Source of the DNA: Microthyrium microscopicum
Lineage: Eukaryota
NCBI GenBank assembly: GCA_010405405.1
Contig: MU004237.1
Coordinates: 224,191-288,190 of the forward strand
Direction of reading: 5' to 3'
Length of the DNA stretch: 64,000 bases
Shown: positions 4,934 to 56,733 of the stretch, in pieces
How positions within the stretch are numbered: position 1 is the first letter of the stretch
Layout: each line of letters starts with the position of its first letter
Program-made: the position numbers and the translations under genes
The notes under the pieces: generated by a model
Told to the model about the DNA's origin: nothing
The model's input: only the letters and a program-made list of their open reading frames with translations
Databases searched by the model: none

Positions 4934-5845
4934 TGTGTTGTATGGTGTGGTTGTGGTTGTTGATGTTGTGCTGATATGGATTGGTGGTTGAGATGGGGGC
5001 CTAGGAGGGGGGAGGCGCATGCGTTGGGGAGTCGGACGAGAAGGTGCTGTGTGCTGGGGGATTGATTGCTGGTGGTTGAGTTCTGGAGATCGTGAGGTAG
5101 TAGTTGTCGTCTGGGTAGGAAGATGTGAGGCTTGTGGAGGCTGCTGATATGGTGTGGATGATGTAGTTGAAAGGAACTTGGCGGTTGGCTTGGGTTGGTT
5201 CTGAGACGTCGAATGAATGAGGCCTGAGGCGCCAAGGCAAGAATTTTAACATCGTGAACATCAACAATCGCTTGAACATTAAAGATAGGAGATCCTGACA
5301 CGAATCAGTGCTTCGAACTCCGATTGGTTTTTTGTCATGCTCAAGATCTTAAGAGCCATCCCCTGGTCCAACGCCTTGGTCTGAATTATTGGAGGAATGC
5401 CGCCATCCGTGGCCCCAGTCCCATGTGTAATCATTAATCAACTATCATGCTCTACCATCACTCAATCCTTATGGCTGTTTGAAGCATCTACAAATGTGAG
5501 TTCTTGCTCGCAGTCAATGGCTTAGTCGTAGAAGGCTCAATATTTCTAGGCAAGCAAAGTCGTACTAAACGAGTGTAATATGTACTACTTAGGAAGAGTA
5601 AATACATGAAAAAACAAACTGAACTGCGAAGACAAACGAAACCAGGCGTACAGAGCCCTGGTTTTAAATCCAAATCTATCGTTGTAACTCATGTTGCATT
5701 TTTGCCATCAATAGGAATTCCCGAACACTTCCTATCGATCACCGTTTTGTAGTGCTCAGCATGCCCACTGACAGCTGATCGAGGTGACCAACAACCTTGT
5801 AGCCATGCTCTTCAATGGAAACCAGCGGTAGGCTTCATTTCGAGC

Positions 5846-6196
5846 TTACAACTTTGGTCCTTTTGGTGGGTCTGGGACGGTCTTATAGCCAGGAGAGGTA
5901 TTGAGTGGGATCCAGCGGTTGGCACCAGCCTCACTGCGAGCCTTCACCTTTGGTCCCTTTGGTGGGTCTGGGACAACCTTATAGCCAGGAGAAGTGTTGA
6001 GTGGGATCCAGCGGTTGGCACCAGCCTCACTGCGAGCCTTCACCTTTGGTCCCTTTGGTGGGTCTGGGACAACCTTATAGCCAGGAGAGGTGTTTAGTGG
6101 GATCCAGCGGTTGGCGGCCTCGACGCTCTGCTCAGCAGGAGCTGGGTTGGCAAACGCAACTCCACCGAGAAATGCGACAATAGTGATGAGTTGCAT
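5846..6196 (-). CDS. Putative RiPP precursor peptide (signal peptide plus three repeats carrying WIPLNTSPGY)
   Basis: 116 aa; hydrophobic signal MQLITIVAFLGGVAFA; 32-aa (96-nt) period repeat ANRWIPLNTSPGYK(V/T)VPDPPKGPK..; adjacent to two DUF3328 genes. Confidence 0.9.
   Translation of the reverse strand: MQLITIVAFLGGVAFANPAPAEQSVEAANRWIPLNTSPGYKVVPDPPKGPKVKARSEAGANRWIPLNTSPGYKVVPDPPKGPKVKARSEAGANRWIPLNTSPGYKTVPDPPKGPKL
5852..6116. repeat. 96-nt coding tandem repeat, about 2.75 copies
   Basis: gggatccagcggttggc recurs at 5907, 6003 and 6099. Confidence 0.95.
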
Positions 6197-6362
6197 GATT
6201 GTAGAGGTTTTGGAACGGTTTAAGTAATGTTTCGTACGGATTGATGATCTTGAAGATGAGCGATGATGTGGATAATTGAAGATGTGGACAAGTGATGATG
6301 TGGATGAGTGGTGATGTGGATGAGTGGTGATGAGGACGAAATGGAGTGCGATATCTTCAGTA

Positions 6363-6368
6363 TTTATA
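6363..6368 (-). promoter_or_regulatory. Candidate TATA box of the precursor gene
   Basis: Minus-strand TGTATAAATA about 170 nt upstream of the ATG at 6196, followed by a CATC-rich leader. Confidence 0.5.
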
Positions 6369-7085
6369 CAGAACTTTCAAAGCCATGAGGCTTGAATCTA
6401 AACAGCCTCTTGAATCCATATCATCACAACTTTTCCGGTTCAGACAAGTGAAGGATCCTATGACTTCCGGCATATTCACACTCTCTGCCTGGTAAAGCCC
6501 TCAACGCAAAGGTTCGTGCGAAGGGAAGCCTTCGAAACCATGATCCAGCTGGATCATCCCACAAACAATGCAATAAATTGTGTAATCCAACCCAAGTTTT
6601 GAAGTTGTATACCTGCTCCTAAAACATGGGATTGCCTCCGTCTATCAATTTTCTGGAGTAAGTTGACAATCCTACAAGCGCCTTACCATTTAGCGTTGTT
6701 TCGGATTTATATTGCAAAGTAGATCTATTATGTACAACCGTGGGTGTTGAGGGATGTGCTGATCGTCGAAGGAAGTCGGGAGGAGGATCCTCCCAATATC
6801 TACATTATCCGCAATCCTCCCTTCTGTGAACCAACTCTATTTTAACAAGGATCAGACAAATTTAGAACATGGCTGCTTACACAGCTCGGCCGCTGGCACG
6901 ACTATCAAAAAGATCCCATAAAACTTCGCCTGCTTTGATATATCACAGTGACATTCTAGAAGCTTGTTTGTTCTATTAGAATCACTCATCATTTGAAGTA
7001 AGACACCTGAGTATTTTCAAATTTCAATACAAAAAGCTCGAGTTGTTGGCAAATAAATTAGTCTATTTTGAGAACAAAAACAAGG

Positions 7086-7984
7086 ATGTCCCAGGACAAG
7101 TCAACAGCACGAGTATTGAGACAACTCTACTTTCCAATACAGTCGCAGCAACAACGACCCCCAACAGCTCAAGACCAAAACAGCCAAGGGGAATTCGAGG
7201 AAGGCGGGTTTTCGTACTACTCTAACTCTCAATCACGCAAGAAATGGCACTACAGAGGCATCATTTTACTTCTCAATTCGGCAATCTTGGTATTGGTAAC
7301 TCTTATCTATGTCCGACCTATCCAGGACATGAGAAGTAATGATGTATCGATACCGAACACGCTTCCTAATGGTATTTGGCTGCTTGCAATTCTGCAGAAC
7401 TATCGAATGCTGACAACCTTAAACAGTGCCCTTTGAGCCCAAAAAGTTCGACTACGACAAAAAGTATATGGGCTGGCCAACTGTGGCCCGAAACAAAGCC
7501 TGGATGTCTTTACAAGGACGTAAGTTTTATACACAGGAACGAATGGAGACAGACAGTCTACTGACAAAAAGTCACAGCGCCTGATCAGCATCCAACCTTT
7601 GTAACTTTCAACAAGAAATCATACCAAATTACGATGTACCACCAGCTCCACTGTTTAGCAATGGTGCGGAAAATGCTGTGGGACGTTGTCCTTGGAAATG
7701 AGGATGCAAAGCAGCTTCTAGGTGGCAGCATTCCAGACATGACTTCAGAAGACACTCTGGGTAATTACAACACTACAGTTCATTGGCGGCTGCAGCACGC
7801 CGACCACTGCCTCGATTTTATACGACAAGGCCTCCAGTGTAATGGCGATGTTGGTCTTGAGCCCGCGATAATGGGCGAAAACAATATCATTGCCGGGGTA
7901 ATGTTTGGAACTATTTCACACCAATGTCGCAGCTGGGACTACGTCAGGAAGTTTGCGGAGGACCATAGACCTGCACCAAGTTAG
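7086..7984 (+). CDS. DUF3328/UstYa-family oxidase (exons 7086-7371, 7427-7519, 7578-7984)
   Basis: N-terminal TM helix; spliced frame gives ..ARNKAWMSL..; two HxxHC motifs YHQLHCL and HADHCLDFIRQGLQCNGDVGLEP; C-terminal HQCRSWD; canonical GT-AG introns restore the frame. Confidence 0.93.
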
Positions 7985-8235
7985 TAAGGACATTATGTTT
8001 CCACAGCCTTTTCATACAGGTGTGCTCATTTGCGTGATCCGCAGCCTATTGAGACCGAATGGTGGGCTTTTACTTCCACAACCGCGCTGAATCGCAAAGA
8101 CATAAGCAGCAGCGGTAGTCAAAAGGCTGAAAGCGATCAGGACGGTGGGAAATTACCCAAGAAGCATGTCTCCTTGAACACGTTTGATATGAACCATGTA
8201 TATCATGTACACACAACAAGATGCCTGATCATCTT

Positions 8236-8864
8236 TTATGTAGGCTTTATGTAAATGAAATAAAGAGTCGAATCTGACGGAGCAGGGTTTGATCCTGCAC
8301 CGCTAATCGCTTCCATCTCTTCCTCCTCTGACGGCTCTGAAGTTGTCGGTGGTCCAGGATATGGCTTTGGTGCATCGTGAACGAAGCCACACTTCTCTAA
8401 TACCTTTCGACTAGCATGGTTCTCTGCCGAGAGAAGAGTTTGAATACAGAGACGTTTGGGTTGCAATTTGAAGAAAGCCACCAAAAAGGCTGCCAACGCT
8501 TCAGTTGCATATCCTCGGTTCCAAAATTTGGGATCTATCATGTAATGCACCTTATCCCAGCGATTTACACCAACGATGCCAATAATCGTGGTCTCTTCTT
8601 TTTGCAATATCGTGTACATTATGCTACGAGGTCCATTTCGGATCTCTTGGATCCATTCTTCCGTTTCTGAAATAGACTTCCACGGGCCAGTCCATCTAGC
8701 TCAATCAGCGTCCTGGTGCTCAGAAGTCAACCTCTGAAACGTGTTGCTTAAACTCACATGTGTCGGTAAACTTCTTCTTGGGACCTAATAGCGTGAAGCT
8801 CTGGGGCATCAGTTACCGCGATCGGACGAAGAATCAGTCGGCTGGTATAGATTTCATTAGCCAT
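8236..8864 (-). CDS. GNAT N-acetyltransferase, RimJ/RimL type (exons 8864-8758, 8695-8236)
   Basis: MANEIYTSRLILRPI N-terminus; acetyl-CoA-binding motif FWNRGYATEAL; N..SRKVLEKCGF. Confidence 0.88.
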
Positions 8865-9252
8865 GGCTTCCACACTGAGTATCGTTTCCAGACAGCAATG
8901 CTGCTCAACGATGATGAGAGTCTCTAGCCACCTCAGTGTACAGTACGTGGTGCTCCCGTAGCGAGATACCTTTATCGTTATGCAGTAGTTGGCTAAGTCT
9001 GGGCCGAGGGTGATTCTAGTGGTAGCCGACGAGCCGTACCGTCGCTACCGGGAATGGATCTGCCAGATGCATGCAATAAACATAAGTCCCCTGCTTTAAA
9101 GCATATTCCTGCAGATCCAGCCGGATTCAACGGGCCAGGCCTGTGTGCCTGCTCAACTCACCACAAGCCATCGCTCAATGTCAGTGCCAAATGCTTCATA
9201 CCATGTATCTTAGTTGCGCAAGTCAATATCTTGAACACGAGAAACTCTTATT

Positions 9253-10089
9253 CTAACCGCTTGTTCGGTATTTATCTATGCTCATTCTGTTCTTGCTCGC
9301 CCAACGAACCACAGCATCGTAGTCTCTACATGTCCGTTCTGAGCCCCACCCACTAGCACCGCCCAAATCAGCTCCCAAAGGCTCCATATTCGTGTCTGCC
9401 GCACACATCAAAACCTGACGCAAGTAATCGAAACAGTGGCCCATGTGGCCTTCAGCACCGTGACCTTCATGTCCTCCATGGGCCATAGGTTTGGAAGATA
9501 ACGCATTGTAGTACGCTCCATGAAGAGAATACTGTTTACCCAACATTGTTAACTACATCTGGCAAGACTACGTGGATGCTTTCAAGACTTACCAGGCAGT
9601 GAAGGCTATGGAAAACGGTCATTGCAGAAGGCTCCGGTGCGATAATTGGATGCTCCACAAAGCCACCGCCCACTTGGAATCATTAGTATTTCATGTATTA
9701 AGCGAGGATGGAGCGATACCTGGAAAGAGAGAGCTCCACGCCTTGAGACCCTCGTCCGAGGGAGCGTCCGTGAATGTGTGGTTGAAGAGTAGAACACGTT
9801 TCATGGTCCCAGGCGGTGCTTTGAGCAGTTAGCCAATATCTAGGCAATTGTAGATTTCATTTGACATACGCTGAAAGTCACGATATTTGTGAACAATGGA
9901 TCCACTGTTGACGCCAGCGAAAAAGCCGAGCAAGGCCGTAGTAATTACTAGTAGAGAAGAGAGAATCCATGGACCGTGTCTCGTTCGTCCATGTCGGTGT
10001 CGATAAACATCATCTTGACCATCAATTTCGCTTGTAAGACTGGAGTCTTCCTCCGTTTCGTGTGAAACTGGCCGATATTCACTTTTCAT
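9253..10089 (-). CDS. Second DUF3328/UstYa-family oxidase (4 exons: about 10089-9870, 9818-9721, 9672-9593, 9531-9253)
   Basis: N-terminal TM; spliced KAWSSLFPVGGGFVEHP..VFHSLHCL; second motif HMGHCFDYLRQVLMCAADTNMEP; GWGSERTCRDYD. Confidence 0.93.
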
Positions 10090-11612
10090 CGTGGGCAATG
10101 GAAAGTTGCTTGCTAATGATTGAGGTATTGAAAGATCCAATGGTAGAAAATAACGTGAGTTTCGATGGCACTTAGAAGGTAGCTGTTCCAAGTGCAAGTT
10201 CTCGCCTTTAGTATTGCCACGCAATAAGGGACAGAGCTGAATGGAGCAATCAAGGAGAAATCCTTGAAGGAAGTTATGACATGATTACAGTTTTAGAGTC
10301 CACACGGTCATCAATCCCTAGGATTCAGTTCATCAGTTCTTCACAACTCCTACGACTACTTTATAATCCTTCAGGAGTCCAGGTAAGTTCCCGCCCGCCC
10401 CGGCCACAATCAGAAAGCCCTTAAGTGCCGTGAGTACAGCAAATTTCTAGAACATCGAGTCGGGTCGAAGTAGTCAGATTTGAATAGAGACAATGAAATC
10501 TAATAGGGACGCGATACCCGTTCCGTCAGAAGGTTCTTATGGTTCCTACAAGGAAGCCTTGAACGCAGCCAAAAACCATGGGCTTAAGAATGAATCTAAA
10601 CTTAAACTCAATTCTTTCAGATACAGACCCCAATGCCTTCCAGAGAATTGTAACAGAGATTGGCAACGGCATAGCAAAATAAATAAAGTTCTCCCATCGA
10701 CTCTGATGGCTGCCACCAACGCTCTTAACCAAAAGGTGCTATACTTCCCATTATATTCGATAAACTATTCGAATTGAAACATCCTTCATGGCAAATGAAC
10801 CACTTGATAAAAGAGCGTAGCGGATAAGAGGCAACCAGGCTGATGGAAGTGTGCCATTTATTTTGACGACTTGTTGACTACTACTAGTAGGAGCCAGCAG
10901 TATAACTGCACTGAGTTGATTATAATAGTGAGACAGCTGGCATTATCAATAACATGCCGCTTTATTGATTGTACTCCTATGATGTTTTACGACTATCATT
11001 TTGTCGACCGTGAAGCGTTCTACAGTGAATCCTTTGCTCGTGCTCGTTAAACTGCCCCTTTAACAACGCTACTTTTTCTGCAGCTACTTATGTAGCAGGT
11101 CTTACAATTCGTCCTACGGCTTCTCCCAAAGTGCCTCCTACTGCTCCTTCTGCTGCCCCTTTTGCTCCTGGTCGTCTGGAACGTGCTGCAGTAGAGCAGG
11201 CTTCGGCGGCGTGGGCAGGACTCGGTCCTCAAAAGCGACAGCGACGGAAATAGGCTTTCTTGTGCGGAGTTGTGTGTCAAAAGTGCCTGCTCGAGGCATT
11301 CTCATTTCTTGAAGACAAAGTTTTTTGGAATAACATTGTTTTCTGCTACTTGTGCCTACCTAATCTAAACACTCGACGAAACCAGTTCATTCTATCAACC
11401 AACGAGAGAAGAATAGCAGGTCGAAGGCTTGTAACTATCAATAACCGCCACCATGAACCTCGCTATGCACAAACCCAATCTCAAGTGCAGAGGATACTAA
11501 TAACAAGAATAGAAACAACACATCGAGCCCTCGCACAGATATGAGTGCGACAGAGCCTATCCAAAAAGTTCCCTGTTCATCCGCGAACAGCCCACGATAT
11601 CTGAGAAGCGGG

Positions 11613-55657: not shown

Positions 55658-56338
55658 TCAGCCCTCCCTCTTCTTGACTTTCTCTTCCCAATCCTTCCTC
55701 GTAATTCCCATCAGAACCAAATCCCTAAGCTCTCCTCTCTTCCAAACCGCATTCCTCACCCTTCCCTCCTCACGACACCCAACCTTCCTCAATACGCCCA
55801 AGCTCGCCTCATTCCCACCGAAGATCCCCGCTCCCAACCTAACCAAATCCTCGCCCTCAACACCCGTCAACCCGCCCTTCAACCCAAACAGCCAGCCAAT
55901 GAACGCATCCACCGCTTCACTCATATACCCCTTTCCCCAATACTCTTTGCCAATCCAATACCCAATCTCCGCGCCTCTTCGATGCACATCAGCCTGGATA
56001 TCCGTGCCAATACCACCAATCATGACCTCCGGCGCATCTGCCAAACAGATACAGAAATGGTGGATGGGTGGGCCGGGAGCATTGGCGGCTGCGTTGGACG
56101 AGACGAAGTTTATGAACGTTTGCGCTGACTCCAGGGTATATGGATAGGGAAAGCGGTCGGTCATGCTAGCAGAGATGGCTTCATCGTTTGCAAGAGAAGC
56201 ACTACGGGGAGCATCTTTGATGTGGTATGGCCGGATTATGAGACGGGTGGTGGTGAGGAGGGCGGCTGGCGGGTATGGCATTGTGTCCCATTGGATTGTT
56301 TTCTCCTGAGAGGTAAAGGCGGTCTTTTCGGCGAGCAT
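55658..56338 (-). CDS. GNAT N-acetyltransferase (RimJ/RimL type)
   Basis: TTRLIIRPY; FPYPYT; AEIGYWIGKEYWGKGYMSEAV; NEASLGVLRKVG..EG. Confidence 0.88.
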   Translation of the reverse strand: MLAEKTAFTSQEKTIQWDTMPYPPAALLTTTRLIIRPYHIKDAPRSASLANDEAISASMTDRFPYPYTLESAQTFINFVSSNAAANAPGPPIHHFCICLADAPEVMIGGIGTDIQADVHRRGAEIGYWIGKEYWGKGYMSEAVDAFIGWLFGLKGGLTGVEGEDLVRLGAGIFGGNEASLGVLRKVGCREEGRVRNAVWKRGELRDLVLMGITRKDWEEKVKKREG

Positions 56339-56733
56339 ATTGTATGTGGTTGGAATATTTAGGATTGTCTGTTGCCTTAGGTGGAGGATTGACGGATTCT
56401 GATTTTTGGAGTAGGAGCGTCTTGCTGCTAGGTCTTCAGGCCTATTTATTTTTGTCTGGCTGTGTTTGGATGACTGGATGATTTTAGAGTACAGTCGATA
56501 CCATGATCTTGAACTGTTCACGAGTCCTTGGCACAGGATGAATCATCTGGGGAGAAATGAGTCAAATGCGGTTGATGTAACCATGGTATACCTTCCGTAT
56601 CTTTGTACTATTTATAGGCAATATGATTGGCGAGGATCCCTGGGGTACTCAAAATCCGCCTAATAGATAAAAAGATTTGAAAGCATTGAATCTGACGTTT
56701 CTGAGAATTGAGAAATTATCCAAGACATTGACA

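Follow-up and report, generated by a model that had tools for sequence, protein, structure and literature searches.

UstYa/DUF3328 enzymes form the cross-links of antimitotic and host-selective fungal peptides. Here we describe a four-gene locus of the leaf-litter fungus Microthyrium microscopicum (Dothideomycetes, Microthyriales) that encodes two such enzymes, a candidate repeat-peptide precursor with a predicted signal peptide, and a GNAT acetyltransferase, and we compare it with the described peptide systems of this kind. The locus lies on a stretch of 64,000 nucleotides of contig MU004237.1 (assembly GCA_010405405.1, positions 224,191 to 288,190 of the forward strand), hereafter called the window, and all coordinates are given relative to its first letter. 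The described systems with which it can be compared include the dikaritins, which are among the peptides made on the ribosome and modified after translation (RiPPs), and the Kex2-processed repeat proteins (KEPs). Dikaritin precursors are defined by repeats that are separated by Kex2 dibasic sites (PMC7329392, PMC9233826), and the repeats of KEPs are delimited by KR, KK, RK or RR (PMC7329392). In ustiloxin and phomopsin the cross-link runs from a tyrosine to a β-branched residue two positions on (PMC9233826).

The UstYa/DUF3328 enzymes themselves have only recently been recognised as binuclear copper enzymes (PMC12435403). CctR is a membrane-anchored, lumen-facing, disulfide-linked homodimer, in which the motif HxxHC(x)nHxxHC binds two coppers and which requires both O2 and electrons; the cyclase AprY of the asperipin pathway and the halogenase ApnU behave like CctR, and members of the family also tailor non-ribosomal peptides, for example cyclochlorotine (PMC12435403). 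DUF3328 gene counts peak directly adjacent to repeat-precursor genes in fungi, 1758 KEPs have a DUF3328 neighbour, and Tyr is present in 65.6% of the DUF3328-linked KEP repeats (PMC7329392). Loci that combine a repeat precursor with DUF3328 genes are thus already catalogued in their thousands, as predictions (PMC7329392), while a substrate is known for only a minority of UstYa genes, most having none assigned.

Results

The four genes and their assignment

The four genes occupy positions 5846–10089 of the window, where an earlier note made from the DNA letters alone had placed them, and all have intact reading frames and canonical GT..AG introns (Table 1). We consider it probable that they form a compact RiPP-like cluster that is lineage-specific and depends on UstYa, with a precursor processed independently of Kex2. 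Observed directly are the four genes with their families, the layout of signal peptide and repeats in the small protein, and, in both oxidases, intact copper-site motifs and features of a type II membrane topology. Within the window the repeat protein is the sole candidate substrate gene, and it is transcribed divergently from the first oxidase gene, UstYa-1, from which it is separated by 889 bp. The second oxidase gene, UstYa-2, is found three positions away from the precursor. The locus has the UstYa genes near the precursor that are typical of such clusters. Proteins with both a signal peptide and tandem repeats number 69,264 of 14,491,621 fungal proteins (0.48%; PMC7329392), so that a gene of this class is unlikely to stand beside a UstYa gene by chance, though where a genome is rich in UstYa genes such a chance adjacency could occur.

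The earlier note had called the locus a dikaritin-type cluster. Its signal peptide, repeats, adjacent UstYa genes and tyrosines agree with this, but the Kex2 dibasic sites of a dikaritin precursor are absent, and for this reason we do not count the locus among the canonical dikaritin or KEP loci.

The candidate repeat-peptide precursor

The precursor is read on the minus strand from an ATG at 6196 to a TAA stop codon at 5846–5848. The N-terminus, MQLITIVAFLGGVAFA, is hydrophobic and is followed by NP (...AFA|NP); the hydropathy maximum of the protein falls on residues 3–21 (Kyte-Doolittle 19-mer, 1.65), and a signal peptide is predicted for about residues 1–16. Judged from hydropathy, the protein has an N-terminal ER signal peptide, as a dikaritin-type precursor does. 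A spacer, NPAPAEQSVEAANR, connects the signal peptide to the repeats, which are composed of the 32-residue unit ANRWIPLNTSPGYK[V/T]VPDPPKGPKVKARSEAG and are positioned at 6115–6020, 6019–5924 and 5923–5846, the third unit being shortened by the stop codon, with similarity running on for a few codons beyond it. The three units provide the tandem copies typical of a dikaritin-type precursor, and Tandem Repeats Finder (TRF) describes the array with a period of 96, 2.9 copies, 93% matches and a score of 480. Each unit contains one Trp, one Tyr, one NTS sequon and no Cys, and residues open to cross-linking, Tyr and Trp, are thus found in every unit. None of KR, KK, RK or RR occurs anywhere in the 116-residue protein, which leaves it without a Kex2 dibasic site, and the only Arg sites are N-R|W and K-A-R|S.

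Over the 24 codons that the units share, four differences are synonymous, three of them within WIPLNTSPGY, and one is non-synonymous (V to T). This mostly synonymous pattern speaks for the minus-strand frame and may reflect selection at the peptide level, but the numbers are tiny. All three repeats are nearly identical, and a core is therefore not delimited by conservation. The peptide WIPLNTSPGY, named as the core in the earlier note, is an assumption and one candidate only; a second candidate is YK[V/T]VPD, which would place a Tyr at position 1 and a β-branched residue at position 3.

A public gene model (KAF2667308.1, P0001; 189 residues) is 100% identical to the precursor over residues 1–116. 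It reads beyond the TAA at 5846–5848 by way of an intron of ~600 nt into an exon within 5001–5245. We prefer the 116-residue product because an RNA contig over 5550–5930 is colinear across this intron; the extension beyond the stop codon is not supported by the RNA run examined.

The repeat unit is confined to the locus, as tblastn gave three matches with E <4e-15 and no other with E <0.05 in the window. No Pfam family reaches threshold on the precursor. A word-indexed search of 5.8 billion proteins (63–203 residues) returned only the precursor itself (1 of 136 candidates), and a full HMMER search of 1.84 billion representatives returned the precursor and one 958-residue repetitive protein, which we judged to be unrelated (E 2.8e-4, 25% identity). 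Language-model look-alikes from the Atlas did not reach a score of 0.9, the best being an unnamed fungal cluster at 0.89; these are leads only, and in calibration scores <0.9 arose for a third of shuffled proteins. The earlier note had found the repeat to match none of the peptide cores it listed, and the two very large protein searches carry the point further, to no characterised cluster and indeed no other protein. Orphan status is not rare for such precursors, given that 2560 of 7878 KEPs are stand-alone sequences without a homologue (PMC7329392).

The two UstYa oxidases

UstYa-1 is composed of three exons (7086–7371, 7427–7519 and 7578–7984) separated by two introns, and is identical in exon structure and sequence to a public model (KAF2667309.1, P0002). 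It matches PF11807 with an E value of 1e-21 (78.2 bits, cut-off 25) and contains an N-terminal tail, a transmembrane (TM) helix at residues 58–76, HQLHC at 148 and HADHC at 200, after which come RQxLxC and CR. UstYa-2 is composed of four exons (10089–9870, 9818–9720, 9672–9593 and 9531–9253) separated by GT..AG introns that measure 51, 47 and 61 nt; its last exon matches PF11807 with an E value of 8.7e-17 (62.1 bits, same cut-off of 25), and the protein has a TM helix at residues 42–60, HSLHC at 128 and HMGHC at 162. In both oxidases a single TM helix thus precedes the domain, HxxHC occurs twice and Cys four times; both show the DUF3328 hallmarks of Pfam score, HxxHC(x)nHxxHC motif, N-terminal TM helix and C-terminal Cys pair. 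The earlier note's description of two intron-split proteins, each with a TM anchor and two HxxHC motifs, was accordingly correct, and both proteins pass the PF11807 check that it had named first.

In an alignment with 13 relatives or domains, the two oxidases retain every near-invariant column, namely HxxHC, HxxHC-x-D-x-x-RQ-x-L-x-C and CR. Since all copper-motif residues are retained, UstYa-1 and UstYa-2 are treated here as putatively competent copper oxidases, by analogy with the family. They are only about 22–24% identical to one another, in this resembling the UstYa/UstYb pair, which suggests that they probably catalyse different steps. The nearest relative of UstYa-1 is a 140-residue fragment (P0017) with 60% identity; other recovered relatives show at most 30%, and no relative was found in the PDB (best E 0.28). 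UstYa-2 shows 40–48% identity to UstYa proteins of Trichophyton, Beauveria and Cordyceps (TERG_03253 and ISF_09179 are examples of these UstYa-2-like genes), gap-free across the exon joints. A hidden Markov model (HMM) built from UstYa relatives gave seven matches among the six-frame open reading frames (ORFs) of the window of at least 30 residues, all of them exons of UstYa-1 or UstYa-2, and this search found no further UstYa exon.

UstYa-1 and P0017 have in common an insertion of ~25 residues between the copper motifs (about residues 160–195 of UstYa-1), which is absent from the other 13 aligned sequences or domains and may mark a distinct subfamily. A metagenome synteny search by way of P0017 yielded three loci, whose matches were limited to residues 114–140 and were taken as spurious; at one of them (L002) the ORF, read by eye, resembles a transposase and not a UstYa protein. 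The public model of UstYa-2 (P0015; 9253–9546, minus strand) is a 97-residue fragment with its Met start inside the intron 9532–9592, and it has neither the TM helix nor the first HxxHC; the four-exon, 225-residue model presented here restores the full domain. A 480-residue protein from Xylariaceae sp. (P0003) contains two complete UstYa domains in tandem, with both HxxHC motifs in each, a natural fusion that fits the reported dimeric working form of the UstYa family.

The GNAT acetyltransferase

The GNAT gene is composed of two exons (8864–8758 and 8695–8236), and its product has no signal peptide and no TM helix. Exon 2 matches PF13302 with an E value of 1.5e-19 (71.5 bits, gathering score 25.4), and exon 1 supplies profile positions 1–27, so the acetyltransferase proposed in the earlier note is real. 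The intron at 8696–8757 is confirmed by a spliced RNA contig, which covers 8207–8695 and 8758–8945 with a CT..AC joint. Relatives in the PDB are weak, all being GNAT or ribosomal-protein-serine acetyltransferases (E 3e-4 to 9e-4). A second Acetyltransf_3 GNAT gene is located at 55661–56542 on the minus strand (PF13302, E 2e-24), 46 kb away among housekeeping genes, and is 28% identical to the first over 83 residues. Membership of the GNAT in the cluster is assigned by adjacency alone.

Transcripts

The RNA data are contigs of one run under one culture condition, with depth unfit for ranking the genes. Two contigs skip canonical introns, which indicates that they derive from spliced RNA. The contigs leave 6027–8206 and 9672–10300 uncovered, gaps that include UstYa-1 and the 5' parts of the precursor and of UstYa-2 and are uninformative about their expression. 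The contigs yield no co-expression evidence for the four genes. Besides the GNAT contig, one contig joins 5002–5495 to 5550–5930 over an intron at 5496–5549, which is GT..AG on the plus strand (GTGAGT...TCTAG), and enters the last 85 nt (3' end) of the minus-strand precursor coding sequence. In the spacer between the SNARE-domain gene and the precursor, this plus-strand transcript has a longest plus-strand ORF of 52 residues and no convincing ORF, and the 5002–5930 transcript may be non-coding, antisense or convergent.

Gene layout

Housekeeping genes border the four-gene island on both sides, as observed in a Pfam scan of the window ORFs (Table 1). The earlier note had named the flanking genes SYN8 and KAP114, which is right at the level of the family (a SNARE domain on one side, importin-9/IBN_N on the other). 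Beyond 16 kb the scan covered 49 of the 65 stop-to-stop ORFs of at least 120 residues, the other 16 being mostly antisense overlaps, and among the window ORFs put through Pfam there was no non-ribosomal peptide synthetase (NRPS), polyketide synthase (PKS) or other scaffold gene. The GC content of the island is unremarkable (0.42–0.49, against 0.46–0.53 in the flanks).

The divergent region between the precursor and UstYa-1 is a possible shared promoter of the two genes. When the three upstream regions of the island were compared, they had 3 7-mers in common (2.98 in shuffles) but none of the 8- to 10-mers. A microsatellite with a 16-nt consensus, GATGATGTGGATAAGT, is found at 6262–6336 (4.7 copies, 86% matches, TRF) and sits 66–140 nt upstream of the precursor start codon, in the 5' untranslated region or promoter.

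Table 1. Features of the locus and its flanks, in window coordinates.
Feature	Position	Strand	Description	Basis
Left flank			Rad10, Rox3, SNARE-domain gene	Pfam scan
96-nt tandem repeat array	5841-6115	minus		TRF
Repeat-peptide precursor gene	5846-6196	minus	116 aa, signal peptide and three 32-aa repeats	
Divergent intergenic region, precursor/UstYa-1	6197-7085		889 bp	gene coordinates
UstYa-1 (DUF3328)	7086-7984	plus	3 exons, 261 aa	PF11807
GNAT (Acetyltransf_3, RimJ/RimL-like)	8236-8864	minus	2 exons, 188 aa	PF13302
UstYa-2 (DUF3328)	9253-10089	minus	4 exons, 225 aa in present model	PF11807
Right flank			Importin with IBN_N and importin-9 HEAT repeats (importin-9/Kap114-type), then HORMA protein	Pfam scan

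Discussion

A possible pathway

For a UstYa-dependent cluster, the repeat protein is predicted to enter the endoplasmic reticulum (ER) via its signal peptide, and the two membrane-anchored UstYa enzymes would act on each repeat in the ER/Golgi lumen, probably in two different steps. The likely chemistry would be an oxidative cross-link or a hydroxylation that involves the one Tyr and/or the one Trp of the unit together with a neighbouring aliphatic Cβ. The units might be freed at monobasic Arg sites (ANR|W, KAR|S) and not at Kex2 dibasic sites, by a protease encoded elsewhere; alternatively, the product may stay a cross-linked mini-protein. The RimJ/L-type GNAT would acetylate a free amine, that of the N-terminus or of a Lys. 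The complete proposal, a Kex2-independent UstYa branch in which a dibasic-free precursor is Trp/Tyr-cross-linked, Arg-released or kept as a mini-protein, and N-acetylated by the cluster GNAT, is a speculative one in which we place rather little confidence.

Weighing the evidence

Several observations weigh against the assignment as a UstYa-dependent cluster. With no dibasic site, the precursor lacks the processing scheme by which dikaritins and KEPs are defined, no protease is encoded nearby, and the units are long and rich in Pro and Lys, which is not what a textbook precursor would contain. The N-T-S sequon of each repeat falls inside WIPLNTSPGY, and such a sequon suits a secreted glycoprotein at least as well as it suits a small cyclic peptide. 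For the precursor, the protein searches gave no homologue and thus no evolutionary evidence of linkage with UstYa genes; moreover, the three repeats are near-identical and the synonymous excess among them rests on 5 codons. The k-mer comparison of the three upstream regions yields no shared promoter motif beyond shuffles. The plus-strand intron in the 5002–5930 contig means that the RNA signal at the precursor comes, at least in part, from the opposite strand, and the sole UstYa-2 contig (9101–9671, over the 3' part of the gene) retains the 61-nt intron 9532–9592 that separates the two HxxHC halves. Acetyltransf_3 genes are frequent, with a second copy in the same window, and a GNAT without a signal peptide is expected on the opposite side of the membrane from the UstYa domains. 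Finally, 31.8% of 9399 DUF3328 genes are found within 15 genes of a KEP (PMC7329392), and since about two thirds are away from any recognised repeat precursor, UstYa genes do not by themselves imply a RiPP.

Part of this evidence suits a coincidence of neighbours, in which the repeat gene encodes an ordinary small protein of effector, cell-surface or adhesion type, which is secreted, carries N-glycans and has proline-rich repeats, or else an unmodified peptide precursor, and in which the substrate of both UstYa enzymes, and perhaps of the GNAT too, is encoded elsewhere. The missing dibasic processing sites, the three NTS sequons in Pro/Lys-rich units and the orphan sequence of the precursor are all consistent with it, as are the absence of co-expression evidence from the one RNA run and of a shared promoter motif; most DUF3328 genes also have no recognised precursor nearby (PMC7329392), and a role on non-ribosomal peptides, as for cyclochlorotine, is described for the family (PMC12435403). 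Such a coincidence would nevertheless have to place a precursor of the 0.48% class (PMC7329392) on the same 889-bp divergent region as a UstYa gene, inside an island of four genes between housekeeping genes and with no NRPS or PKS scaffold among the window ORFs scanned, and we regard it as unlikely. A relic or silent UstYa-type RiPP locus, nonfunctional in this strain or under these conditions because, for example, UstYa-2 is not productively spliced, is improbable. The contig 9101–9671 is unspliced through 9532–9592, which would truncate UstYa-2 after the first HxxHC, the deposited model of that gene is the 97-residue fragment that starts inside the same intron, and the protein searches with the precursor found the locus in no other organism. 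The four frames are nonetheless intact, the introns are canonical and every conserved UstYa residue is present; contigs drop rare variants, the end of this one falls no more than a base from where exon 3 begins or ends, which is expected if spliced RNA exists beside unspliced RNA, and little can be concluded on a secondary-metabolite locus from a single culture condition.

The precursor could also be that of an α-factor-like pheromone, secreted in several copies of a peptide that begins with Trp and ends with Tyr, and be merely near UstYa genes, but this is very improbable. An MF_alpha precursor cluster occurs among the Atlas look-alikes with a score of 0.81, below the 0.9 threshold and therefore a lead only, of the kind that a third of shuffled proteins would also produce; the unit W...PG.Y may loosely resemble yeast α-factor. 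Pheromones of the Pezizomycotina typically contain Cys, unlike the precursor, which has none. No Pfam match to MF_alpha or MF_alpha_N was found on it at E up to 0.1, the pattern of KR plus X-Ala/X-Pro processing is absent, and mating-factor KEPs almost never adjoin DUF3328 genes (PMC7329392).

Significance

The architecture of the cluster is already known, and the combination of UstYa with GNAT is already predicted in lichens. The locus is of value because it offers a minimal case in which to test for UstYa substrates of the kind that KR-based miners would miss, and its four genes would be an easy heterologous-expression target for a new cross-link. If a UstYa-dependent, Kex2-independent cluster is correct, precursor miners that require KR would systematically miss a class of substrates, the Kex2 mining rule being too narrow, and such precursors could explain part of the ~two thirds of DUF3328 genes without a recognised one; the product would also be the first acetylated fungal UstYa peptide. 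If instead the neighbours are coincidental, the locus would be merely one more secreted repeat protein beside orphan oxidases.

Comparison with known systems

Among the papers listed on Microthyrium microscopicum we found none that describes a peptide cluster. The locus has in common with KEPs the signal peptide, at least three tandem repeats of at least 8 residues and an adjacent DUF3328 gene (PMC7329392), yet the KEP pipeline would not list its precursor, which fails the KR/KK/RK/RR rule. UstYa-1 and UstYa-2 are built like CctR, with a tail at the N-terminus, one TM helix and a helical domain in the lumen that bears HxxHC(x)nHxxHC, and their two further Cys are positioned like the disulfide pair of the CctR dimer (PMC12435403); CctR tailors a non-ribosomal peptide, whereas no NRPS is found among the window ORFs scanned here. 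Identity to the relatives recovered is at most 30% for UstYa-1 (apart from the 60% fragment P0017) and at most 48% for UstYa-2.

For the combination of UstY with GNAT, the only precedent found in the literature is the predicted Clan R2 of lichens (Parmeliaceae; PMC12048977), in which a UstY homologue is flanked by GNAT genes and the usual dikaritin tailoring genes are absent. The authors of that study propose N-terminal acetylation by analogy with bacterial RiPPs (PMC12048977). In Clan R2 a single UstY accompanies several GNAT copies and no repeat precursor was identified, whereas at the present locus two UstYa genes stand with one GNAT and an evident repeat gene; the likeness is one of gene content.

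In the ustiloxin (ustA/ustQ/ustYa/ustYb) and phomopsin clusters, as here, two or more UstYa homologues that have diverged from one another stand beside a secreted repeat precursor, and the Y-K-V/T of the present unit fits the Tyr spacing of their cross-links, with the phomopsin core motif taken from the list in the earlier note. The present locus differs from them in that genes for a tyrosinase, a methyltransferase, an S41 peptidase and a regulator are all missing. In UstA there are 16 repeats, with ED and KR on their flanks (PMC6514808), against three repeats and no KR here.

Asperipin-2a of Aspergillus flavus (aprA, aprY, aprT, aprR) differs from the present locus in having one UstYa gene in place of two divergent ones, a reductase and a transporter in place of the GNAT, and short KR-flanked units in place of 32-residue units without dibasic sites; the repeat sequences are unrelated. 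The likeness lies in the overall plan, as asperipin-2a is likewise a four-gene locus whose repeat precursor has a signal peptide and Tyr, and its DUF3328 enzyme, with no tyrosinase, is the only cyclisation machinery (PMC6514808), AprY being reported as a copper- and O2-dependent dimer (PMC12435403).

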